Sequence record: PX667085.1
DNA length: 64,000 nucleotides
Origin: a phage
Strand: one strand, 5' to 3'
The translations under genes and the position numbers were made by a program. This document shows, piece by piece, positions 10,416-20,499 of this stretch. The notes below the pieces were generated by a model. It did not search any database. It saw only the letters and a program-made list of their open reading frames with translations, and was not told where the DNA came from. Within the stretch, counting starts at the first letter, position 1, and each line of letters starts with the position of its first letter.

Positions 10416-11072
10416 ATGACTATTAAACATATCTCTTTTGATGTATGGAACACACTGATCACAGCAAACTCCAATTACGCAGACATGCGAGCCTGGACTA
10501 TCGCAAAATATGGAGATATTACGGAAGTGGAAGCAAGAGCAGCTTATAAAAAGATCAAAAAGGAACTGGATAATGCAGCACTTCAAGGCAAAGCCGAGTG
10601 TGCAGCATATGCCTGGGAAAGACTTGGTTCTGAACTTGGGATAACGCCTTGGAAGTCTGCAAAGCTTCGTTTCGAGTGTGAACAGTGGTTCCTTAAGTTT
10701 CCACCACACGTAGCCGTAGATCTGCCGATGTACTTGCTGTATCTTTCGGGGCGTTATGATTTGAGTATTAAGAGCAACACCAACTTCATATCAGGAGATA
10801 TCCTGCGTCGTGCTTGTAAGTTTGATAGTTGGAATTGTTTTGAGTTCACCCATTTCTCGGATGAAGCTTTACTTTGTAAACCAGATCCGCGATTCTTTGC
10901 TCGCACGCTCACGTATTCTCCGATCCCTCTGTTAGGGCACGAAGTGTTGCACGTAGGCGATAGTGAAGAATATGATGGAAAATGTGTTGACTTAGGATTT
11001 AACTTCTGTCATATTAAGAACCCTAACGACTTACTAGAGAAACTTAAAAGAGGAGAAATTGTAAATGCGTAA
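10416..11072 (+). CDS. HAD-superfamily hydrolase-like protein
   Basis: N-terminal ISFDVWNTLI (HAD motif I, dehalogenase-like variant) and C-terminal HVGDSEEYD. Confidence 0.55.
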   Translation: MTIKHISFDVWNTLITANSNYADMRAWTIAKYGDITEVEARAAYKKIKKELDNAALQGKAECAAYAWERLGSELGITPWKSAKLRFECEQWFLKFPPHVAVDLPMYLLYLSGRYDLSIKSNTNFISGDILRRACKFDSWNCFEFTHFSDEALLCKPDPRFFARTLTYSPIPLLGHEVLHVGDSEEYDGKCVDLGFNFCHIKNPNDLLEKLKRGEIVNA

Positions 11073-11892
11073 TCAAACTCAAATTTTTGCAAATAAATTT
11101 GATGACCTGGAAACTGCTACTTTTGATATCCAAGATTATTCAAAATTGAAATTTGGTAGTAACCAAGCTGCGCGTCGTATGGGTAAAGAATTGGCACTTC
11201 AGTTTTTTGCTCAAGTGGCAATGAAACATATTGGGGAACAATTTGTTATCATTCCTTCTCCTTATAACCATGTGCATAATGCTGCAACAATGATGACAGA
11301 TCATTTTATTAATTATTTTAATATGTTGCAATCACAATATGATCAAGGTCGTTCAGCAGAACTGGACATTATTCATCGTAAAGTTAGCTATATCAACGAT
11401 TATGGTTTCTTGGATAAAGCTAGTCGTAAGAAACTTATTGATGGGGATACATTCTACTGCAACAAAGAATTCTGGGGCGATAAGAAGCTTGTATTCATTG
11501 ATGATGTAAATATCACTGGAACGCATGAAGACAAACTGATTGAGATCCTTGATGAAAATCAAGTTAAAAATGATGTTTACTTCTTGTATTTTGCAAAATA
11601 CGAAGGTAATCAAGCAGATACCGAAGCTAAACTGAATTTTAACTACATTAATACACCAGAAGCGTTTGTTAAAATGATTAATGAAGAACGTGATGCACAG
11701 TGTCTTGTTCGTCCTATTAAGTATCTTATGGGCCAAAATCATGAAGACTTCAAAATCATTCTTAGCCAATTGCCACATTACTATGTAGAGCAACTTTTCT
11801 TTGGATGCTTGGGAGAAGGTTACAACCGAATTTCAAAGTATGCTGAAAACTTTGAATTCTTGGATCGTTACACAAAACAACACATTCTGTAA
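11065..11892 (+). CDS. phosphoribosyltransferase (type I PRTase) family protein
   Basis: PRPP-binding signature LVFIDDVNITGTH. Confidence 0.6.
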   Translation: MRNQTQIFANKFDDLETATFDIQDYSKLKFGSNQAARRMGKELALQFFAQVAMKHIGEQFVIIPSPYNHVHNAATMMTDHFINYFNMLQSQYDQGRSAELDIIHRKVSYINDYGFLDKASRKKLIDGDTFYCNKEFWGDKKLVFIDDVNITGTHEDKLIEILDENQVKNDVYFLYFAKYEGNQADTEAKLNFNYINTPEAFVKMINEERDAQCLVRPIKYLMGQNHEDFKIILSQLPHYYVEQLFFGCLGEGYNRISKYAENFEFLDRYTKQHIL

Positions 11893-11905
11893 TAAGGAGC
11901 TAAAA

Positions 11906-12379
11906 ATGCTTAAAATGAAAACAGGTAATCTTATTGATGCCGCTAAAGCAGGTGAAGTAACTGTTATTGCTCATTGTTGCAACTGTATGTGTAATATGGG
12001 GGCAGGTATTGCCCCACAAATTAAACAAGCATTCCCTTATGCATATGCGGCAGATTTAGACACAAGGGCTGGTGATCAAAGTAAGTTAGGTTCTTTTAGT
12101 TTAGGGGTGCCAGACGAACAATCAGACCCTTTGGTATATAATCTATACGGGCAATACCGTTACGGATACAATGCTAAAGGTCGTCAGTTGGACTATGATG
12201 CACTTTATGATGCACTAATAGCTATGGCTAATGATTTGCTTCTCCGTGACCAAAAATGTAAGATCGGCTTACCTATGATTGGCGCTGGATATGCTGGAGG
12301 TAATTGGGCTATCATCCAAGTGATGATTGAAGAAACTTTAGTAAAAACAGGTCACGATGTGACTATTTATAAACTTTAA
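11906..12379 (+). CDS. macro-domain protein (ADP-ribose-type ligand binding/processing)
   Basis: VIAHCCNCMCNMGAGIA and LPMIGAGYAGG align to the two glycine-rich macro-domain loops; AAGGAGC then ATG at 11906. Confidence 0.65.
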   Translation: MLKMKTGNLIDAAKAGEVTVIAHCCNCMCNMGAGIAPQIKQAFPYAYAADLDTRAGDQSKLGSFSLGVPDEQSDPLVYNLYGQYRYGYNAKGRQLDYDALYDALIAMANDLLLRDQKCKIGLPMIGAGYAGGNWAIIQVMIEETLVKTGHDVTIYKL

Positions 12380-12391
12380 GAGGAGATTAGT

Positions 12392-12613
12392 ATGGGTGTT
12401 TTTGCAGGTATTGTTGCAGTGGTAAGCTTTTTTGTTATTGCTTTTATGCTTAGTTTGATTCCAGCTTGGTTACTGTTGCTGGCTTACAACTATGTTGCTG
12501 AAGTTATGGGTCATGCAGATATCACTGTCCCAGTAACCTTCTGGACCGTGGTTTGTGTTTCGTTTATTCTGGCTGTATTACGAGGAATCTTTTCCTCTCA
12601 TTCAACAAAATAA
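12392..12613 (+). CDS. small hydrophobic membrane protein (73 aa)
   Basis: Two predicted transmembrane helices; GAGGAG ribosome binding site. Confidence 0.5.
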   Translation: MGVFAGIVAVVSFFVIAFMLSLIPAWLLLLAYNYVAEVMGHADITVPVTFWTVVCVSFILAVLRGIFSSHSTK

Positions 12614-12616
12614 GTG

Positions 12617-12644
12617 TTGACATAGTTCTTAAAAAGAGTAAGAT
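12617..12644 (+). promoter_or_regulatory. sigma70-like promoter (TTGACA, 16 nt spacer, TAAGAT)
   Basis: Consensus -35 read directly; -10 matches 4 of 6. Confidence 0.45.
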
Positions 12645-12656
12645 GTATCACATGAA

Positions 12657-12675
12657 GCGGGGAATAGTTCCCCGC
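12657..12675 (+). promoter_or_regulatory. GC-rich hairpin in the terC 5-prime leader
   Basis: gcgggg/ccccgc stem between promoter and ribosome binding site; no T-run follows. Confidence 0.4.
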
Positions 12676-12692
12676 AAAGAGAGGAGAAAAGA

Positions 12693-13667
12693 ATGCAACT
12701 TGGTTTCCCAATTATTGATGTAGTTGTTTTAGTTGGTATTTTGGCATTGTCTATTGGTATCGATTTCTTTGGTCATAAAGAGAATAAAGAAATTGGAATT
12801 AAATCTGCTTTGCTTTGGTCTGTTTTTTGGATTGCTTTAGCTTTAGGATATTACGCATTCATTTGGGTAGAACATGGTAAAGAGTTTGCCGCGCTTTTCC
12901 TAAGTGGCTATGTGTTGGAAAAGAGTCTTTCTGTAGATAACCTGATGGTGTTCATGGCAATTTTTGCAAGCTTTGGAATTAAGAGCACACATCTCCAACA
13001 TAAGATTTTACTTTGGGGGATTGCAGGAGCCATTGTCTTCCGAGGTATTTTTGTTGCAGCAGGGACCGCTTTGTTTAACCTTCATTGGTCGGTCCAAGTG
13101 TTGTTCGGTTTGATTGTAGCTTGGTCTGCCGTGGCTATCATCAAAGGTGGTGACGAAGAAGAGGATATTGATTACTCTAAGCATTGGGCTGTTCGTTTAG
13201 TAGGTAAAGTTCTGCCTGTGCACAATGCACTAGATGGTGAAAAGTTCATTACCATTAAGAATGGTATTAAATATGCAACTCCTGCTCTTCTTTGTGTGTT
13301 TGTTATTGAGCTTACAGATATTGTCTTCTCTTTTGATTCAGTTCCGGCTGTGATCGGTGTGACACAAGAACCTCTGCTAGTTTATTCTGCAATGCTGATG
13401 GCTGTTCTTGGTTTACGTGCACTTTTCTTTGTGTTAAGTGTAGCTGTGAAATATCTGGTTCACTTAGAGAAAGCTGTTGCTGTGGTTCTGGTGTTTGTCG
13501 GTGCTAAACTTATGTATCACCCGTTCGGTGAAACACTTCATGCCAAATGGTCATTCCTCCCGCATGATATTTCCCCTAACGTAAGTCTGATGATTGTTCT
13601 AGGCACATTAGCTCTTGGTGTTATTGCAAGCTTTATCTTCCCTGAAAAAGAAGAAGCTGCTGTTTAA
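12693..13667 (+). CDS. terC: TerC-family integral membrane protein
   Basis: Multi-pass membrane protein with the EKSLSVDN motif characteristic of the TerC family. Confidence 0.75.
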   Translation: MQLGFPIIDVVVLVGILALSIGIDFFGHKENKEIGIKSALLWSVFWIALALGYYAFIWVEHGKEFAALFLSGYVLEKSLSVDNLMVFMAIFASFGIKSTHLQHKILLWGIAGAIVFRGIFVAAGTALFNLHWSVQVLFGLIVAWSAVAIIKGGDEEEDIDYSKHWAVRLVGKVLPVHNALDGEKFITIKNGIKYATPALLCVFVIELTDIVFSFDSVPAVIGVTQEPLLVYSAMLMAVLGLRALFFVLSVAVKYLVHLEKAVAVVLVFVGAKLMYHPFGETLHAKWSFLPHDISPNVSLMIVLGTLALGVIASFIFPEKEEAAV

Positions 13668-13673
13668 TAGATG

Positions 13674-13698
13674 AGCCTCCTTCGGGAGGCTATTTTAT
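13674..13698 (+). terminator. rho-independent terminator
   Basis: agcctcc-ttcg-ggaggct hairpin followed by a T-rich tail. Confidence 0.6.
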
Positions 13699-13709
13699 AG
13701 GAGAGACTT

Positions 13710-14060
13710 ATGAATAATTTTGATGAAATTCAAGAACTTATTTGGGATTTATCTGGTGATGTGGATTACGTTTTAGATTACCTTTCAAAAGTTTACCCTG
13801 GGGTAAGCGTTATGATTGTGACCAAAGATCCAATTAATTTGCCTCCTAATGTTGTAGCTTGTTGTGGAAGTGGTTCAGGAGAAGTAGAGCCTGTATCTCG
13901 TTGGGAATTAACTAAAGCTGTTTCAAAACGAAACGGTGAAGTTTTGAATATTGATATCGAACAAATATGGACTTCTCCAGCAGCCAAATGGAACGATCCA
14001 AATGGTTGGGATTTGTTCTTCTGGGATAATGAAACTGATGATGAGGTATTTTTAAAATGA
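13710..14060 (+). CDS. hypothetical protein (116 aa)
   Basis: ORF with ribosome binding site. Confidence 0.55.
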   Translation: MNNFDEIQELIWDLSGDVDYVLDYLSKVYPGVSVMIVTKDPINLPPNVVACCGSGSGEVEPVSRWELTKAVSKRNGEVLNIDIEQIWTSPAAKWNDPNGWDLFFWDNETDDEVFLK

Positions 14061-14302
14061 AATACTTGTTGGTTGTGTTTGAAAATATCTGTTTTGCAAT
14101 AGGGTTGTTTGTTGTAATTTTTGTATTGACAAGCGTAATCAACGGCAGTAAAGTGAGTTTATACCGAGATGGAGAGCAACTTTATTGCTTCTCTGGAGAT
14201 TTCAAACACAGATGTATTAATAGTCAAAATGAGGAAAGCAAATATGAAAAAACTAGCCCTGATTTTAATTGGTTGTATCTTTTTAACAGCTTGCGAGGAT
14301 GA
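14057..14302 (+). CDS. possible small membrane protein (81 aa)
   Basis: ATGA overlap with upstream stop and a hydrophobic N-terminus, but overlaps the lipoprotein gene by 59 nt. Confidence 0.35.
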   Translation: MKYLLVVFENICFAIGLFVVIFVLTSVINGSKVSLYRDGEQLYCFSGDFKHRCINSQNEESKYEKTSPDFNWLYLFNSLRG

Positions 14303-14681
14303 AACAAATCCTGCACAATACCAACAACCTCCTCAACAATACGCTCAACAAGGATCTGACGGAGATACAACTATTATCAACAATGGTGGCGGTTCTAGTA
14401 GTAGCGGTGTTGGTGAGTTTGCTACAGGTATGTTGTTAGGGCATATGATGAGTGGTGGTAGTAATCGTAACAGTGGGGATTATAACGATAACAGAACGAT
14501 TATTAATAAGCATTATAATACACCTAAACCGAAAACTAATTTTTATGGTAAGCCTAAACAAGAGATAAAAACTTATGAAAAGCCGAGACAAACTTTTAAA
14601 ACAAATAGTAGCTATACAACTCGTAAATCTTACAATAGCCCTTTAAGTAAAAAGAGTTCATCTCGTAGCAAGCGACGTTAA
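14244..14681 (+). CDS. putative lipoprotein, Gln/Ser/Gly-rich
   Basis: MKKLALILIGCIFLTAC lipobox-type signal after GAGGAAA; low-complexity mature region. Confidence 0.55.
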   Translation: MKKLALILIGCIFLTACEDETNPAQYQQPPQQYAQQGSDGDTTIINNGGGSSSSGVGEFATGMLLGHMMSGGSNRNSGDYNDNRTIINKHYNTPKPKTNFYGKPKQEIKTYEKPRQTFKTNSSYTTRKSYNSPLSKKSSSRSKRR

Positions 14682-14695
14682 TAAGGAGAAAAACA

Positions 14696-15289
14696 ATGAC
14701 AATTTCTATTCGTACTTCCATTACAGGTGTTAAAAGTTTGCCTAATGCTTTGCAAATCACACGTGCTTTGAGGGATACGTTCTCTGCTGTGGATGAGCAT
14801 AAGATGCTCGATAATCTCTCAAATTGGCCCTATTTTCATTATTTTAAAAATGAAGACGACGAGTTTATAGACGCTGTTTCTTACGGTTATGATTTCGGTA
14901 AGGAGGTTTCTCCTGAAGAATTTGTAGCTACAGTATTTCCAAACGGTTTGCCTACTCGCAGTAAACGTAAAAAAGGACCAAAAAACAAGAAACGTGCTAC
15001 TAATAAAGCTACCATTTTCTTTACTGATGGCACACAATATACGATTAAAGATTTTGAAGAGGTATCTTATACAGCAGGTGGGAGTCTTTCTTTCTACACC
15101 ATCAAAAAACAAAACTATACGTTCAGCCATGTTTCTAACATGATTGAAATGTTAGTAGAAGATATTGAAAGCGTGGCTGTGTTAGGTATGCATAAAAGCT
15201 TTTTAATTACAAATATTTCAGATTTCAGTGCAAGTTTATCTGGCCCTGATTTTGAAGCCACGACCACGTATTTCGCTTTTAAGGTGTAA
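14696..15289 (+). CDS. hypothetical protein (197 aa)
   Basis: AAGGAG ribosome binding site. Confidence 0.55.
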   Translation: MTISIRTSITGVKSLPNALQITRALRDTFSAVDEHKMLDNLSNWPYFHYFKNEDDEFIDAVSYGYDFGKEVSPEEFVATVFPNGLPTRSKRKKGPKNKKRATNKATIFFTDGTQYTIKDFEEVSYTAGGSLSFYTIKKQNYTFSHVSNMIEMLVEDIESVAVLGMHKSFLITNISDFSASLSGPDFEATTTYFAFKV

Positions 15290-15292
15290 GTT

Positions 15293-15883
15293 ATGCATAC
15301 CGAGAGAGACTTGCAACTCTTGTGGTGGGAAGTGATGCAGGAAATAAAAGAAGATTTTCCTGTTTACTACAACATGTTACGTGAAGCAGGATATAAAGCT
15401 TGTGTTAGAAACAAAGTGAATAACTCTTTCGGTTGGTGCAACTACCGAGATAAAATTGTTGTTGTAAATTGGCACTTGCATAAGAACTCCACAAGAGATA
15501 TGATCGTGGATACAATGAAGCACGAAATTGCTCATGCTATTGATGGTTGTATGGGTAAGTTTAGTAGACACGGTGCTCATTGGCAAAAACTGGCAGCAGA
15601 GTTAGGGGCTAATCCTAAAGCCACTTCCAAAGAGCCGTTGAACCACGAATATAAATATGTTCTTGTTCTGGTAGATAGGTTTGCGACAAGATGTGTTAGA
15701 GGTTATAATCGTAAACCTAATCGCATGTACCCAGGTAAGCAACCTAATATGTGGTTGAAATCAGATAAAGAAGGGACCGAAGGAAAATTATGGTTGTATA
15801 AATGGGACGATTGGGTTAAAGTAGCTAAAGAGTACGGTGTTTCACCATATATAAGAGATGCAGAAGAGGAGAATGAAGAATGA
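15293..15883 (+). CDS. SprT-like zinc metallopeptidase domain protein
   Basis: HEIAH (HExxH) motif in an SprT-like context. Confidence 0.45.
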   Translation: MHTERDLQLLWWEVMQEIKEDFPVYYNMLREAGYKACVRNKVNNSFGWCNYRDKIVVVNWHLHKNSTRDMIVDTMKHEIAHAIDGCMGKFSRHGAHWQKLAAELGANPKATSKEPLNHEYKYVLVLVDRFATRCVRGYNRKPNRMYPGKQPNMWLKSDKEGTEGKLWLYKWDDWVKVAKEYGVSPYIRDAEEENEE

Positions 15884-16992
15884 CAAGTCCATTTTTAAAA
15901 GCAGCTACTGGTGGTCAGAAGAAGCCTGAAATGAGCGTATTTGCTGCAACAACAGATGCAAGTAAATCTGTATTCGCTCCAAGCGTGTTAGATGCCAGTC
16001 CTGTTTATGCACCAGCGGCACCGCAAGAAGTTCCAGTTTTGCCTTCTATGACCCGACAAGAGATTGAAGAGATTGGGGCAGAGGCAGGAACAACCTTGCG
16101 TTCCTTGAATGCCGAGGTGTTAAAACATCAACGTAGTAATCAAGGCGATCAGATGAGTGAACGACTCACAGCTTTGATTAAACAGGCAAAACAACTTGAT
16201 CCAAACTCTATTAAACAAAGCAAGGGTATTACTAAACTCATTAAAAAAGTTATGGGTATGAAAGAAGACCTGTTCGGGGAGTTTGATAATGTTAATAACC
16301 GTATTGAAGAGTTGGTAAAGAACCTTCAAATGGATATTCGCAAAGAAGAAGATTCCTTGGTATATCTTGAAAAGCTACATCAAGCTATTGGACAATATGC
16401 TGCAAGTTTGAACCGAGATATGCAGCTTCTAACAGCAACCTATGAAAAAGAAGAACAAGCTTTGGCTGCTCTTCCAGAAGATGCAGTAGAACAGCGACAA
16501 GTGATCCGAGATACTTTGGATCTTCTGGAGATTCGTATTGCAGATTTAAAAGCATTGCGCCTACTGTGTGTCCAAATGGGACCGCGTGTACAAGGTATGC
16601 AAAAAGTTTCTGCAAGCTTAATGCGATCTGCGCGTAACATAGTAAATAATGTTATTCCTGCTTACTCTGCTAACTTCTCAATGTATATCGAGAGCTTACG
16701 TCAAATGAAAGCAGCAGAGACGCAGAATAACGTTCTTGATGAATTTAACCTGGCAATTAAACTGGGTAGCGATCTTGCCACACAGAATCAGATCGAAGCA
16801 GCAGCACTGGCTAACCGTCAAGTGTTGGATATTGAAACTCTGCGTCACGATCAGGAAAACTTGGTTAAGATGTTGGAAGAAACTAACCGCATCAATACGG
16901 AAGCCCGTGCTGCTCGTGTTGATTATATTAATGAAGTTCAATCTCTGGAAGACGGGATGGTAGCTGCTGTGAAACGAGGGCTTGGTAAATGA
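15880..16992 (+). CDS. hypothetical alpha-helical protein (370 aa; TelA-like is a speculation)
   Basis: Disordered Ala/Pro-rich N-terminus then long helical region; ATGA overlap. Confidence 0.5.
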   Translation: MTSPFLKAATGGQKKPEMSVFAATTDASKSVFAPSVLDASPVYAPAAPQEVPVLPSMTRQEIEEIGAEAGTTLRSLNAEVLKHQRSNQGDQMSERLTALIKQAKQLDPNSIKQSKGITKLIKKVMGMKEDLFGEFDNVNNRIEELVKNLQMDIRKEEDSLVYLEKLHQAIGQYAASLNRDMQLLTATYEKEEQALAALPEDAVEQRQVIRDTLDLLEIRIADLKALRLLCVQMGPRVQGMQKVSASLMRSARNIVNNVIPAYSANFSMYIESLRQMKAAETQNNVLDEFNLAIKLGSDLATQNQIEAAALANRQVLDIETLRHDQENLVKMLEETNRINTEARAARVDYINEVQSLEDGMVAAVKRGLGK

Positions 16993-17186
16993 GAATCCGT
17001 ATCTATATAATTGATGAAGACATTGGTGTCCGTTATGATGACGAAAAACGATTCGCACCGATGGGAGGCATATATCCCCCAAGTGTTCTAGCAGTTTGTC
17101 GTGATTGTTATATTTATGAAGGTTGTCGTAACTTCCGTAAATTCGAACTCCTTGCAGATATTGACTTCAATGAGGAGGAGGAGTAA
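16989..17186 (+). CDS. hypothetical protein (65 aa)
   Basis: ATGA overlap with upstream gene. Confidence 0.45.
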   Translation: MRIRIYIIDEDIGVRYDDEKRFAPMGGIYPPSVLAVCRDCYIYEGCRNFRKFELLADIDFNEEEE

Positions 17187-17359
17187 TGAAAATATTACGA
17201 GTGAATATTGAAACTGCTTGGTGTGGATGCAATGAGGTTGTGGATATCGAAATTGAAGATGATATGTCTCAAGAGGATATAGAAGATCTTGCACACGAAA
17301 CCTTTCAGGATTATTGTAATTACGGGTTCCATATTTTAGAGGAGGAAGAAGATGTATAA
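17186..17359 (+). CDS. small acidic hypothetical protein (57 aa, absent from ORF track)
   Basis: ATG overlaps upstream stop (TAATG); GGAGGAGGAG ribosome binding site; 3-prime end overlaps next start. Confidence 0.35.
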   Translation: MKILRVNIETAWCGCNEVVDIEIEDDMSQEDIEDLAHETFQDYCNYGFHILEEEEDV

Positions 17360-17750
17360 TCCAACAGGTATTCTTTTAAAACTTACAGTAACAGACCCTA
17401 CTCTTTTCACTAAGTTAGCAAGTGGTGAAGTTTATGAAGTAATGAAAGATGGTGACGGTTGGTGTTATCTTTGTGGCTACTTCCTCTGTGATGCAGAAGA
17501 GTTAGAGTCCATTGTAACTAAAGGTTTTTATGAAGAACCAGGGTTCCGTGTGGAAACTACGCAGAAACCTGATACCATTACGCTGACTCGACAGGAACTG
17601 ATCACAATCATTGAAGATGCTTTTATTGATGGCTGGAATACACAAGATAATGACTGGGGTGGACCCGAAGCTTTTCTGGAACATCATAAAGCTTATGGAG
17701 AATTTTGTGAAACCACTGTAGCTCTTGATAATCTGAAGGAGGGTTTGTAA
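17352..17750 (+). CDS. hypothetical protein (132 aa)
   Basis: GAGGAGG ribosome binding site. Confidence 0.55.
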   Translation: MYNPTGILLKLTVTDPTLFTKLASGEVYEVMKDGDGWCYLCGYFLCDAEELESIVTKGFYEEPGFRVETTQKPDTITLTRQELITIIEDAFIDGWNTQDNDWGGPEAFLEHHKAYGEFCETTVALDNLKEGL

Positions 17751-18319
17751 TGGGTTGCTTTAGTTTTCTGTGTAAGGAGTCGGGCAAAGCTGCCCTCTCC
17801 ACCTCTTTCGATGGATCTCCTTGCTATCTCTTTCTACTGAAAGATGGAAAGGTTATCGAAGAGATGCACGGCAATTATGATAGTTATGGGCGTGTCTTCT
17901 CCAGTAAGCAGGATGCTCACGGGAACAGAGAAAGCTTTAAATGGACTATACCTTGGAGCGACGTTTGTGATCTTATGTTCTCTGTAAACCGTGGAGACGG
18001 TATTGCTATGGTTTTAGCAGAACACTTTACAGGAGAAGCCCCCACAGAACGATCCGAGGATGATCCTAATCAAGGTTGGGGAGACGGAGAAGAAGAGGAA
18101 GAAGAGGATTATTTCTACAGCACCGAAAATAATATTTTCAAACGTGTTGACAACCCTTATCATAAAGTGCATAATGTCCTCACTGAAACAGAAGACGACA
18201 AAATGGAAATTGAAGAAGATGATCCTCTTGTAACACTTCCTATAAGTGAGTTACAAAAGATCACTAAGGAAGCTTACGATTTGGGCTTCAAAATTGGTAG
18301 AGGAGGTATGCGTGTTTAG
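17750..18319 (+). CDS. hypothetical acidic protein (189 aa)
   Basis: TAATG overlap; poly-Glu stretch. Confidence 0.55.
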   Translation: MGCFSFLCKESGKAALSTSFDGSPCYLFLLKDGKVIEEMHGNYDSYGRVFSSKQDAHGNRESFKWTIPWSDVCDLMFSVNRGDGIAMVLAEHFTGEAPTERSEDDPNQGWGDGEEEEEEDYFYSTENNIFKRVDNPYHKVHNVLTETEDDKMEIEEDDPLVTLPISELQKITKEAYDLGFKIGRGGMRV

Positions 18320-18590
18320 ATTCAATATTCAAGAAGAAAAAAGTCAAGATTTACCTATTGCTTTCGAAGATCTTGACGTAGGGGCAACATTCATGTATTA
18401 TGATGCCTATGAAGACGCAGGGTTGGATACCTACCGTAACTTGGTGTTCATTAAAAATTCCACAAACAGTGCGATTTGTATTAATGGATCACTAGCACAA
18501 CGAGGCTATACTCATTGCATCCCACCAGATACAAATATGGTGGAAGTAGATTTAGAAGTTACCAATATTACACTTAAGAAGGAGAAATAA
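18312..18590 (+). CDS. small hypothetical protein, cassette paralog A
   Basis: GTG start 5 nt after GGAGG; paralog of 19612-19881 (shared DLDVG.TF, LEV.LTV.ITLK). Confidence 0.5.
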   Translation: MFRFNIQEEKSQDLPIAFEDLDVGATFMYYDAYEDAGLDTYRNLVFIKNSTNSAICINGSLAQRGYTHCIPPDTNMVEVDLEVTNITLKKEK

Positions 18591-18591
18591 T

Positions 18592-19386
18592 ATGTCCGAG
18601 AAAATCAGCCTGAAAAAACGTCAAGAAAACCTTGCTTTCTCTCTGAAAAAGAATAAGAACCTGAATGAAGGTAAGATTGTTCTTCGTGTAGCATGTGCTC
18701 TAGATATTTCTGGTAGTATGCATGGTCTATATTCTAGTGGGGTAGTGAGTGATTTTGTAGGTAAACTGCTTCCTTTTGGTATGCTGTTCGACGATAATCA
18801 ACAAATTGATATGTGGGCCTTCAATACGAGTTCCCAAGAGCTTACTCCAGCAACAGCAGACGTTTACGATGACTATGTTGGTAAATGTATGCGTAATGTT
18901 CGTATCGGAGGTGGAACAAATTACGCCCCTGTAATGGCAGATATCTACGATGAGTATTTTGGCACTGTTACCAAATATATTACCACTAAACAAGTGGTAC
19001 AAGAGGAGGCTCCAAAGAAAGGCTTCTTTAATCGTCTGCTTGGTAAAACTGAAACAGTGTCTGTAGAGCGTGAAAAAGTTGTAGCTGTATCTGAACCAGG
19101 TGCTGACGTTACCCCTGGTGTTGTATTCTTCCAGACGGATGGTGAGAATGGTGATCCTAGTGCTGTTCGTCGTCTTATTGAAGAGAATAAGAATAAACCT
19201 ATTTATTGGTTCATGGTTGGCGTTGGTAATGAGAAGTTTGGGTTCCTGAAAGAACTGGCAAATGCTTATGATAATGTTGGTTTTATTGGCATTAAAGATT
19301 TAGACTTGACAGATTCAGAGCTTTATGACAAACTCTTATCTGAGGAGTTCGGAGAGTGGGTTGTTAAAGTAGGTGCTAAAAAATGA
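18592..19386 (+). CDS. von Willebrand factor A (vWA) domain protein, TerY-like
   Basis: MIDAS motif DISGSM, downstream GGTNY and QTDGENGD; N-terminal KISLKK motif shared with TerD. Confidence 0.65.
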   Translation: MSEKISLKKRQENLAFSLKKNKNLNEGKIVLRVACALDISGSMHGLYSSGVVSDFVGKLLPFGMLFDDNQQIDMWAFNTSSQELTPATADVYDDYVGKCMRNVRIGGGTNYAPVMADIYDEYFGTVTKYITTKQVVQEEAPKKGFFNRLLGKTETVSVEREKVVAVSEPGADVTPGVVFFQTDGENGDPSAVRRLIEENKNKPIYWFMVGVGNEKFGFLKELANAYDNVGFIGIKDLDLTDSELYDKLLSEEFGEWVVKVGAKK

Positions 19387-19631
19387 TCGACGAGCTTGCC
19401 TCTCAAGTCATAGAAAATTATTGGCGCGAGAGAGAAGCTTTCATTATGCGCAGTCTCAAAGAGTATTTCATTGGGACTGTGCGAATGGAAGATATTGTAA
19501 GTAGAGTGGAGATTCATGTATGGCCCGATTATGAAGAATGGGTTGACAAAGAAAATGAAAATGCTATAATTCTTCGTATATACAAACCGGAGATAACATT
19601 AGGAGGAAGAAGTGTTAAACTTCGAAATTGA
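19383..19631 (+). CDS. hypothetical protein (82 aa)
   Basis: ATGA overlap with vWA gene. Confidence 0.45.
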   Translation: MIDELASQVIENYWREREAFIMRSLKEYFIGTVRMEDIVSRVEIHVWPDYEEWVDKENENAIILRIYKPEITLGGRSVKLRN

Positions 19632-19881
19632 TGAGCAAAAAGTAAATAAACGATGCCTTACCATTAAAGATTTGGATGTAGGAGATACTTTCGTCTATGA
19701 AAATGCATTTGACGAAAATGGTTTAGACCTTAGTGAAATCATTGTTTATTTAAAAGTAGATGATGGGGAAAATGATTATTCTGCTGTAGAACTAAACCAT
19801 CATGCACAATTAGTATCAATCCAAAACACATCTAAGCTTTTGGAAGTAGAATTGACTGTAACTGGTATTACACTTAAATAA
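19612..19881 (+). CDS. small hypothetical protein, cassette paralog B
   Basis: GTG start 5 nt after AGGAGG; paralog of 18312-18590. Confidence 0.5.
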   Translation: MLNFEIDEQKVNKRCLTIKDLDVGDTFVYENAFDENGLDLSEIIVYLKVDDGENDYSAVELNHHAQLVSIQNTSKLLEVELTVTGITLK

Positions 19882-19896
19882 TAGAGGAGACAAAAG

Positions 19897-20499
19897 ATGA
19901 CTGATAAAATTTCCCTGAAAAAAGGCTCTAGCGAAAAAATTTCCCTGAAGAAAGTTGCTCCGGCTCTGAAAGAACTGCGCCTGGAATTCTCTTGGAAATC
20001 TGATTCTAAACTGGATCTGGATGTAAGTGCACTGGTTTGTCGTCACAATGCCGCTGGTAATCCTGAAATGCTGTCTGCACGTCATCTGGTTTGCTATGCT
20101 AACAAGTTTGATCCTGAACGTTCTACCTTCGCTGGTGACGATGTTCGTGATGGAACTGGCAGCATGGAGCAGATTGATATTACTCTGGCTAAAATCTCTC
20201 CTGATGCACAAGAGATTGCCTTTGTTCTGACCATTGATGATGATACAGGTCTGAAACGTTTTGGTCATGCTTCTGAAGGTATGCTTAAAATCTTCGACTC
20301 CGAGCGCAATGTGGAAATTCTGGATTTTGACTTCCTGGCTCCTGAAGTAGCTGGCAACACAATCTGCCACGTGGCTTCCTTGGTTCGTGAAGATGGGGAA
20401 TGGAAGCTGAAAGCATATGGTGTAGGTAAAGCTGGTCTGGATATTTGTGATGTGGTGATGGCCTTCGGTGGTAAAAAAGAATGGTATGAATGTCCATAA
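19897..20499 (+). CDS. terD: TerD-domain protein
   Basis: Matches E. coli TerD (recalled from memory): N-terminal SLKKG...ISLKK, DLDVSAL, GDDVRDGTGS, IAFVLTIDD, DGEWKLKAYG. Confidence 0.8.
   Translation: MTDKISLKKGSSEKISLKKVAPALKELRLEFSWKSDSKLDLDVSALVCRHNAAGNPEMLSARHLVCYANKFDPERSTFAGDDVRDGTGSMEQIDITLAKISPDAQEIAFVLTIDDDTGLKRFGHASEGMLKIFDSERNVEILDFDFLAPEVAGNTICHVASLVREDGEWKLKAYGVGKAGLDICDVVMAFGGKKEWYECP

Follow-up and report, generated by a model that had tools for sequence, protein, structure and literature searches.

Why should a virulent phage of Escherichia coli carry genes of the bacterial Ter network, and what could these genes be doing in the infected cell? The question is raised by positions 10416–20499 of a stretch of phage DNA of 64,000 nucleotides (record PX667085.1; this whole stretch is referred to hereafter as the window). 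The region begins with the start of a gene for a HAD-type hydrolase and ends with the stop codon of a terD gene, and every gene in it lies on the + strand. It is Phapecoctavirus DNA, 97–98% identical over the full 10 kb to phAPEC8 and, to the same extent, to anhysbys, to the ESCO-series phages and to ~60 other Phapecoctavirus genomes; these relatives, belonging to the Stephanstirmvirinae, are virulent myoviruses of ~150 kb, which bears out the “lytic-looking phage” of an initial annotation made from the sequence alone. The virulent E. coli phages of the phAPEC8 group thus carry an abridged version of the bacterial Ter network, and the comparison of neighbourhoods described below argues for a functional link between six of the genes, encoding the HAD hydrolase, a phosphoribosyltransferase of the PRTase_3 family, TerC, TelA, a vWA protein and TerD. 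We give roughly an even chance to the reading that these six genes constitute a phage-adapted Ter system, in which the product of the HAD–PRTase_3 dyad and a membrane assembly of TerD, vWA, TelA and TerC would protect the infected cell and exclude depolarising insults.

The six core genes and their recurrent linkage

The genes in question are the following:

10416–11072, + strand: hydrolase of the HAD-IA type, opening the HAD → PRTase_3 dyad, with motifs FDVWNT (containing the nucleophile Asp), SNTNF, KP and GDSxxYD
11065–11892, + strand: PRTase_3, a ComF-like type I phosphoribosyltransferase (PF15610), its gene overlapping that of the HAD protein by 8 nt
12693–13667, + strand: TerC/Alx-family integral membrane protein (PF03741, E 3e-40)
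15880–16992, + strand: TelA, of the toxic anion resistance protein family (PF05816, E 3e-33, 115.7 bits against a cutoff of 30)
18592–19386, + strand: vWA-TerF-like protein (PF10138, E 1.6e-37)
19897–20499, + strand: TerD-domain protein (PF02342, E 3e-28, above the cutoff)

The HAD protein remains under the Pfam gathering score (21.2 versus 26.4 bits) but is secured by its full-length alignment with an archaeal HAD structure (PDB 2om6, E 8e-5), to which its motif I, FDVWNTL, is identical, and by matches to HAD-IA models of NCBIfam; it also matches phrog_14393 (“hydrolase”) and is weakly similar to the YjjG nucleotidase of NCBIfam. Motifs I–IV are conserved among the HAD proteins of the dyads, all of which retain the nucleophile Asp as well as Ser/Thr, Lys and an acidic motif for Mg2+. 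The residue two places beyond the nucleophile (D+2) is normally, in the phosphatases and mutases of this superfamily, the Asp acting as general acid/base; in the window protein and in the HAD proteins of 17 other loci it is never Asp, being Trp (as in the window) and, once, Tyr.

The PRTase_3 protein matches PF15610 with E 2e-41, and about 40 positions, the phosphoribosyl pyrophosphate (PRPP) loop DDVxITGTHE among them, are invariant in 101 homologues. Its AlphaFold (AF2) model, which is confident (predicted local distance difference test score 93.7), displays a type I phosphoribosyltransferase core, to which residues 186–275 add an all-helical C-terminal region, and the protein looks like an active enzyme under strong constraint. 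Could this enzyme be a common phosphoribosyltransferase for orotate or purines which, with a house-keeping nucleotidase of the HAD type, serves phage DNA synthesis beside NrdDG? The GenBank label “putative orotate phosphoribosyltransferase”, the adjoining genes for the anaerobic ribonucleotide reductase and the similarity of the HAD protein to YjjG would be compatible with such a role, which is nevertheless highly improbable: PF15610 is not a salvage family, the protein matches no NCBIfam salvage-enzyme model and no PDB sequence, the best Foldseek matches of its model (HGPRT, ComF and PyrR) have TM scores of only 0.3–0.5, and any salvage would be reversed by a phosphatase that acts on the product. 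The routine nucleotide-salvage module against which the initial annotation had asked that its proposal be checked is therefore not what is found here, the enzyme having a distant type I fold with an extra helical region, and the orotate label is, by the same searches, unsupported. Salvage of nicotinamide adenine dinucleotide by the phosphoribosyltransferase in conjunction with the macro-domain protein encoded downstream was likewise rejected, by inference, since here too a phosphatase would undo it; the Klebsiella relatives encode separate NadV/NMNAT genes.

The remaining four proteins belong to families of the Ter network. TerC reaches 319 bits with TIGR03718 (“R_switched_Alx”, TerC/Alx), whose cutoff is 246. 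The vWA protein, initially described as TerY-like, is in fact of the TerF type, and its metal ion-dependent adhesion site (MIDAS) residues, as read from the translation, are complete (D-I-S-G-S ... T ... D). TerD is related to the Klebsiella TerD of known structure (PDB 2kxt; phmmer E 1.5e-15). As a whole, profile, PDB and NCBIfam matches and, for the small membrane protein, two hydrophobic segments confirm that HAD, phosphoribosyltransferase, macro-domain, small membrane, TerC, vWA and TerD proteins are encoded on one strand within ~10 kb. The families named by the initial annotation are correct in this respect, its Ter and phosphoribosyltransferase members being placed by Pfam and the HAD and macro proteins, both under their gathering scores, by PDB and NCBIfam; the gene list was incomplete, TelA (15880–16992) and an SprT-like protein (15293–15883) having been overlooked.

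Both the names of these families and the GenBank labels speak of “tellurite resistance”, and it could be imagined that the set makes the cell, whether infected or pseudolysogenic, resistant to tellurite, metals or other xenobiotics; indeed, xenobiotic resistance during pseudolysogeny is a further possibility mentioned by Iyer et al. (PMC7824862), and a study on Klebsiella attributes to TerC a contribution to tellurite and zinc resistance (PMC12054061). A benefit of this kind is, however, very unlikely in a virulent phage that quickly lyses its host; furthermore, the Pfam scan of the open reading frames (ORFs) of the block revealed neither TerB nor the several TerD paralogues that the resistance operon contains, and the authors reporting on a comparable phage set considered tellurium resistance unlikely in view of the missing components.

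The argument for a functional unit comes from a census of PRTase_3 neighbourhoods comprising 46 loci, drawn from annotated phages, from contigs of IMG/VR, from metagenome assemblies and plasmids, and from prokaryotic genomes at one per species. The ORFs of these loci were labelled by iterative HMMER searches with the window proteins, the labels agreeing with precomputed or fresh Pfam matches where available, and clustering of the PRTase_3 proteins at 80% identity yielded 21 lineages, 18 of them outside the Stephanstirmvirinae. In all 21, and in all of the 40-plus loci examined, a HAD gene is found immediately 5′ of the PRTase_3 gene, often overlapping it. In nine of the 18 lineages outside the subfamily, at least two among TerD, vWA-TerF, TelA and TerC (or the TerC-clan DUF475) are encoded at no more than 10 kb from the dyad. 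The phosphoribosyltransferases of these nine Ter-linked lineages share only 25–58% pairwise identity and their genes occur in at least five orders:

TerC–X–TerD–Y–vWA–HAD–PRT
TerC–vWA–TerD–TerD–TelA–HAD–PRT
TelA–vWA–...–HAD–PRT–TerD
TelA–HAD–PRT–vWA–...–TerD
TerD–TerD–HAD–PRT–TerC

A linkage that is shuffled and yet persists is a classical hallmark of genes associated in function, and argues for such an association of HAD, PRTase_3, TerC, TelA, vWA and TerD, which we define as the six-gene core. The same conclusion is suggested by the distribution of the families among 50,697 phage records, PRTase_3 being present in 157 and TerD in 149 that largely coincide by organism and listed accession, as compared with ~0.5 shared records expected if the two were independent. 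The neighbourhood comparison thus sustains the link of a Ter-like cluster with phosphoribosyltransferase and HAD enzymes that had been perceived in the single locus, the families themselves being secured by the matches given above. No Pfam match was obtained for proteins X and Y, which belong to the compact clusters of L006/L007, nor for several neighbours in L017 and L024.

The clear cellular relatives of the PRTase_3 clade to which the window protein belongs are HAD–PRTase_3 dyads on Rhizobiaceae replicons only, namely a Sinorhizobium plasmid (L027) and pRL10 (L028); neither has Ter genes nearby, and one of them lies amid genes for a UbiA prenyltransferase, an oxidoreductase, an epimerase, an SMR protein and a glycosyltransferase. 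The cellular relatives of PRTase_3 found at all are from Rhizobiaceae (~40% identity) and from contigs of Bacteroidota metagenome-assembled genomes (~30%) only. An origin of the block from the ter island of E. coli or of IncHI2 plasmids was considered and rejected, a tblastn search of enterobacterial plasmids with PRTase_3 having given no match at E <= 1e-3.

Proposed mechanism and its weighing

What is observed is that the proteins belong to these families, that catalytic and metal-binding motifs are conserved and that the genes lie together again and again in different lineages; from this we infer a product, an assembly and a phenotype. The core genes would be expressed as part of the phage genome's replication/nucleotide-metabolism arm, and their products would act at the inner membrane of E. 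coli. PRTase_3 would join PRPP to a base-like acceptor to give a nucleotide, which the HAD enzyme would process to a nucleoside-like product; this is the simplest plausible pathway, and the weak similarity to YjjG is consistent with it. TerC/Alx would be a cation-transporting membrane protein and, together with TelA, the MIDAS-intact TerF-type vWA protein and TerD, would provide the membrane-proximal components of a device that may preserve the ion homeostasis and the membrane integrity of the infected cell while excluding depolarising insults such as the DNA injection of a superinfecting phage or pore-forming colicins. A role at the membrane is suggested by the partners of the system in other phages, since SPFH/Band 7 genes are additionally present in some Ter-linked clusters and a pspA-like gene adjoins terD in gut jumbo phages. 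A role in exclusion is suggested by the phage inhibition and the colicin resistance conferred by plasmid ter genes (Whelan et al. 1995, as related by the papers citing it) and by the proposal of Iyer et al. 2021, who assign this role to phage Ter systems (PMC7824862). More specifically, the dyad might produce in infected E. coli a nucleoside-like molecule that acts either as the ligand activating the TerD/vWA/TelA/TerC membrane-protection or exclusion device or as an antagonist of host immunity, a proposition that we regard as tentative and rather doubtful.

Several observations weigh against a single Ter-like device. The six genes are spread over 10 kb with about 12 unrelated ORFs between them, and the block appears to be split into several transcription units, TerC having what seem to be its own promoter and terminator and a consensus promoter preceding TerD. 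The replacement of the D+2 Asp by Trp or Tyr makes it uncertain that the HAD enzyme performs simple phosphatase chemistry. In TerD the DLD motif is kept, and the Ca2+-binding acidic cluster, GDGDDE in the Klebsiella protein, is only partly retained, as GTGSMEQ. The Pfam scan of the 20 ORFs of the block gave no match to TerB, to ATP-grasp or to the lyase enzymes of the bacterial Ter clusters, and there are no multiple TerD paralogues, a single TerD being present in the whole window. Nine of the 18 lineages outside the Stephanstirmvirinae have the dyad without a detectable Ter neighbour, Rhizobium phages, Rhizobiaceae plasmids, XaC1-like phages and CcrColossus among them; in CcrColossus and XaC1, TerD is encoded elsewhere in the genome. 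TelA is found in 225 of the phage records as compared with the 157 containing PRTase_3, so that the sub-modules may be separable. Finally, the ter sets published for other phages have been given as having an unknown function (PMC8386662, PMC9796965).

Some of these data would find a ready explanation if the block were a mosaic in which unrelated accessory modules, i.e., a nucleotide-type pair of HAD and PRTase_3, a TerC/Alx metal exporter and an envelope stress group of TelA, vWA and TerD, had settled side by side in a permissive region and shared neither a pathway nor a ligand. Such a mosaic is possible, albeit with a clearly minor share of our confidence. The several apparent transcription units with many lineage-specific ORFs between them, the dyad occurring on its own both in every second lineage and on the plasmids of Rhizobiaceae, the larger number of TelA records, and the XaC1-like phages, in which the dyad lies instead amid RNA-repair and translation genes, all speak in its favour. 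On the other hand, without selection for linkage it is hard to explain why dyad and Ter genes are found together in nine lineages whose phosphoribosyltransferases have diverged to such an extent and whose gene order is shuffled. Moreover, even the L008/L009 lineage, in which Ter neighbours are missing and RNA-repair and translation genes lie nearby, encodes after the dyad a protein matching DUF2828/DUF7788; DUF2828 proteins are probably related to vWA, in which case this neighbour too would be of the vWA type.

In the XaC1-like jumbo phages the gene after the dyad encodes a protein of ~530 amino acids (L008:10967-12562; L003:7941-9527), the DUF2828/DUF7788 match coming from the L008 protein only. 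The surroundings of the dyad in these phages, comprising RNA ligase, a 2H-like phosphoesterase, CCA-adding enzyme, S30AE, PTH2 and Nudix proteins, are unlike the Ter context.

The other genes of the block and their expression signals

Apart from the six core genes, the block contains the following:

11906–12379, + strand: macro-domain protein with a TARG1/DarG-like fold, of the SCO6735/BT1257 subgroup
12392–12613, + strand: small membrane protein of 73 amino acids with two hydrophobic segments, conserved only within Stephanstirmvirinae
14244–14681, + strand: lipoprotein with lipobox LTAC and a glycine-zipper-like segment
15293–15883, + strand: SprT-like HExxH protein (E 4e-9)
18312–18590, + strand: small paralogue A, directly 5′ of the vWA gene
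19612–19881, + strand: small paralogue B, directly 5′ of TerD

Like the HAD protein, the macro protein is under its Pfam gathering score (19.8 versus 22 bits) but finds matches in the SCO6735 macrodomain (PDB 5e3b, E 1e-12), in human OARD1/TARG1 (E 3e-6), in BT1257 and in the DarG of Thermus aquaticus, while its best matches among defence-related models are those of DarG (NCBIfam E 1e-8, PADLOC E 3e-10). A further gene, located 5′ of the HAD gene, encodes a protein of 201 amino acids to which PADLOC models of the “AbiEi” antitoxin align from end to end (E 5e-13). Could then the first operon (the 201-amino-acid gene, HAD, PRTase_3 and macro) be an anti-immunity island, in which the macro protein, as an orphan DarG-like antitoxin, erases ADP-ribosylation and the dyad makes or destroys a nucleotide-derived molecule directed against host immune signalling? 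Besides the matches just mentioned, the existence of orphan DarG-like antitoxins of phages, established with AdfN (PMC11825919) and AdfM (PMC13309987), would be in line with this possibility. We consider it unlikely, however, since the macro and 201-amino-acid genes adjoin the dyad only in close relatives, the partners with which the dyad recurs elsewhere are Ter proteins and not antitoxin-like genes, and the AbiEi match finds no corroboration in Pfam, PDB or fold searches. Furthermore, the HMMER alignment with OARD1 places a Gln under the catalytic Lys (in T-K-K), which we take to be K84 of TARG1, and an Ala under the catalytic Asp (in G-L-D). The catalytic Lys of the DarG2/AdfM enzymes is given in the literature as K80 (T. 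aquaticus DarG2) and K78 (AdfM). The replacement of Lys by Gln weakens the assignment of the phage protein as a canonical DarG2/AdfM enzyme, as judged from the OARD1 alignment and not from a direct alignment with the DarG2/AdfM Lys. In phi92-like phages the annotated macro protein is ~90 amino acids longer at its N terminus (244 amino acids).

As to the proposed Ter system, the initial annotation had counted the macro domain and the two duplicated small genes among its parts. The latter are true paralogues, as stated there (34% identity, E 2e-14); their membership and that of the macro domain do not hold, for these genes stand beside Ter genes only in one subfamily, which indicates vertical inheritance and not participation in the system. 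Indeed, the macro, two-segment membrane peptide, SprT-like and small paralogue genes, together with the intervening ORFs, keep company with the core only inside Stephanstirmvirinae, and the macro domain was rejected as a core component for this reason. The SprT-like protein was not detected in the phi92-like (Justusliebigvirus) loci and is for this reason considered a passenger. On these comparisons the macro, SprT-like, lipoprotein, small paralogue and 201-amino-acid genes are all treated as lineage-specific passengers and not as parts of the core.

The lipoprotein family displays a recurrent layout: a signal peptide and lipobox come first and acidic residues follow the Cys, after which come a linker rich in Q, a segment resembling a glycine zipper and a tail that is rich in S, K and R and terminates in RRR. 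In relatives the residues at the Cys read C-D-D, the pattern for inner-membrane retention. Three unrelated lineages besides that of the window also encode lipoproteins of the same architecture within a few kb of the dyad (L024:14017-14583, L008:5748-6257 and L003:3546-4043), so that an association with the Ter system is possible, although the biased composition of these proteins weakens the link.

The signals that may govern the expression of the block are the following:

12617–12692, + strand: TerC leader, with promoter-like TTGACA-16-TAAGAT, the 5′ hairpin GCGGGGAAUAGUUCCCCGC and a strong ribosome-binding site
13674–13691, + strand: terminator-like hairpin directly 3′ of TerC, annotated as a terminator in the relative ASO2A
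19543–19570, + strand: promoter in perfect agreement with the sigma-70 consensus (TTGACA, 16 nt, TG of an extended -10, TATAAT), inside a gene for 82 amino acids and upstream of small paralogue B and TerD

Within 12651–12692 (+ strand), the leader hairpin, stable (z = -3.0 with respect to shuffled sequences) and apparently stabilising, has no U tract and is directly followed by the strong ribosome-binding site GAGAGGAG. Rfam gives no match for the leader, whether the gathering threshold or E <= 1 is taken as the limit, and no yybP-ykoY riboswitch is present. A riboswitch or an attenuator before TerC was rejected in view of this negative search, of the missing U tract and of the strong ribosome-binding site that comes next. 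The GenBank record of one relative labels the leader hairpin as a terminator, which seems unlikely.

The block is located within the replication/nucleotide-metabolism arm of the phage genome. It is preceded by genes for a helicase, a HisRS-like protein and NrdD/NrdG and followed by those for an SleB-like hydrolase, four glycosyltransferases, a primase/helicase, a Dam-like methyltransferase, PolA and SSB, after which come tail genes on the opposite strand. The four glycosyltransferase genes (GT2-like and GT1 WbuB-like), lying between the SleB-like hydrolase and the primase/helicase, are consecutive and extend from 21822 to ~25600 on the + strand.

The block is conserved across Stephanstirmvirinae, its synteny being kept in Phapecoctavirus, in Justusliebigvirus and in the Klebsiella relatives. 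It is also present in four records named after hosts other than E. coli. The DNA of Campylobacter phage B15 (MG065650) and of Acinetobacter phage ABPW7 (OP562383) is 97–98% identical to that of E. coli Phapecoctavirus; A145 (MG065645) matches phi92-like proteins exactly, and the TerD of Pseudomonas phage PsgM04F (OR584014) is 90% identical. The non-E. coli host labels of these four records look doubtful.

Relation to known Ter systems

The initial annotation had considered this combination of genes not to be a standard phage module, thereby implying a novelty that is not borne out. The block occurs throughout Stephanstirmvirinae; the GenBank record of SKA64 already labels a REG-2-like HAD protein, the phosphoribosyltransferase, Macro_Poa1p_like, TerC, SprT, TelA, vWA-TerF and TerD, and HAD, phosphoribosyltransferase and macrodomain are annotated in the BASEL phage JohannJBalmer (Bas62). 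Phage Ter systems were described by Iyer, Anantharaman, Krishnan, Burroughs and Aravind in 2021 (PMC7824862), with a phosphoribosyltransferase and a HAD enzyme for “signal biosynthesis” and with the superinfection-exclusion proposal, in Acinetobacter phage vB_AbaM_ME3 and Caulobacter jumbo phages, for instance, and were extended by these authors to “certain other related smaller tailed phages”. The set of the window shares with these systems the phosphoribosyltransferase and HAD pair, TerD, TerC, TelA, the TerF-type vWA protein and the occurrence in virulent tailed phages. It differs from them in belonging to a subfamily of 150-kb, non-jumbo E. coli myoviruses not singled out in that paper and in having its genes dispersed over 10 kb amid lineage-specific ORFs instead of gathered in a compact operon.

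Partial ter sets have also been reported in the virulent phages PhiPsa374 (terC, terD, terF, telA) and phiKp34 (PMC8386662, PMC9796965); these have in common with the present one the clustering of TerC, TerD, TerF-type vWA and TelA in a lytic phage, whereas the phosphoribosyltransferase/HAD pair, present here, is not mentioned there. Like the terZABCDEF clusters of IncHI2 plasmid R478, E. coli O157 and Klebsiella, the block encodes members of the TerC and TerD families and a vWA domain of the TerF type; it differs from these clusters in lacking TerB and in having a single TerD paralogue, divergent from Klebsiella TerD. The phenotypes known for plasmid ter genes are tellurite resistance, phage inhibition and resistance to pore-forming colicins (as cited in PMC8386662 and PMC9796965; for the phage inhibition and colicin resistance of R478, Whelan 1995). 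Compared with E. coli Alx and the TerC-family exporters, the phage TerC scores above the subfamily cutoff (TIGR03718) but is preceded by a short 5′ hairpin and a ribosome-binding site and not by a yybP-ykoY riboswitch. As to the orphan anti-DarT factors (the macro protein AdfM and the NADAR protein AdfN) and TARG1/SCO6735, the phage macro protein belongs to the TARG1/DarG-type fold class; it has, however, Gln and Ala in place of the catalytic Lys and Asp of TARG1, as do SCO6735 and BT1257, so that its activity seems uncertain, and outside Stephanstirmvirinae it has no evident link with Ter genes.

The Ter set of Stephanstirmvirinae is real, and its recognition correctly identifies once more what annotations already contained and what had been discussed before for other phages. 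A literature search yielded no paper on this set beyond lists of “tellurite resistance” genes, none on PF15610/PRTase_3 and none on phAPEC8 together with TerC. What is added here is the invariant HAD → PRTase_3 coupling, the aromatic residue at D+2, the use of shuffled synteny to define a six-gene core and the reclassification of the macro domain and the small paralogues as passengers.

The biology of the Ter proteins is a long-standing puzzle, to which the block offers a tractable entry in the form of a two-gene biosynthetic core with four membrane-proximal partners. Several of the phages carrying it infect E. coli K-12 and are available in a public collection (BASEL Bas62), which makes the Ter question genetically testable. 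Should the core genes protect the membrane or block superinfection, this would bear on the competition between phages, on lysis timing and on the design of phage cocktails; should the dyad indeed make a metabolite, the “Ter metabolite” and the function of the Ter proteins would become directly identifiable in phages that infect K-12.

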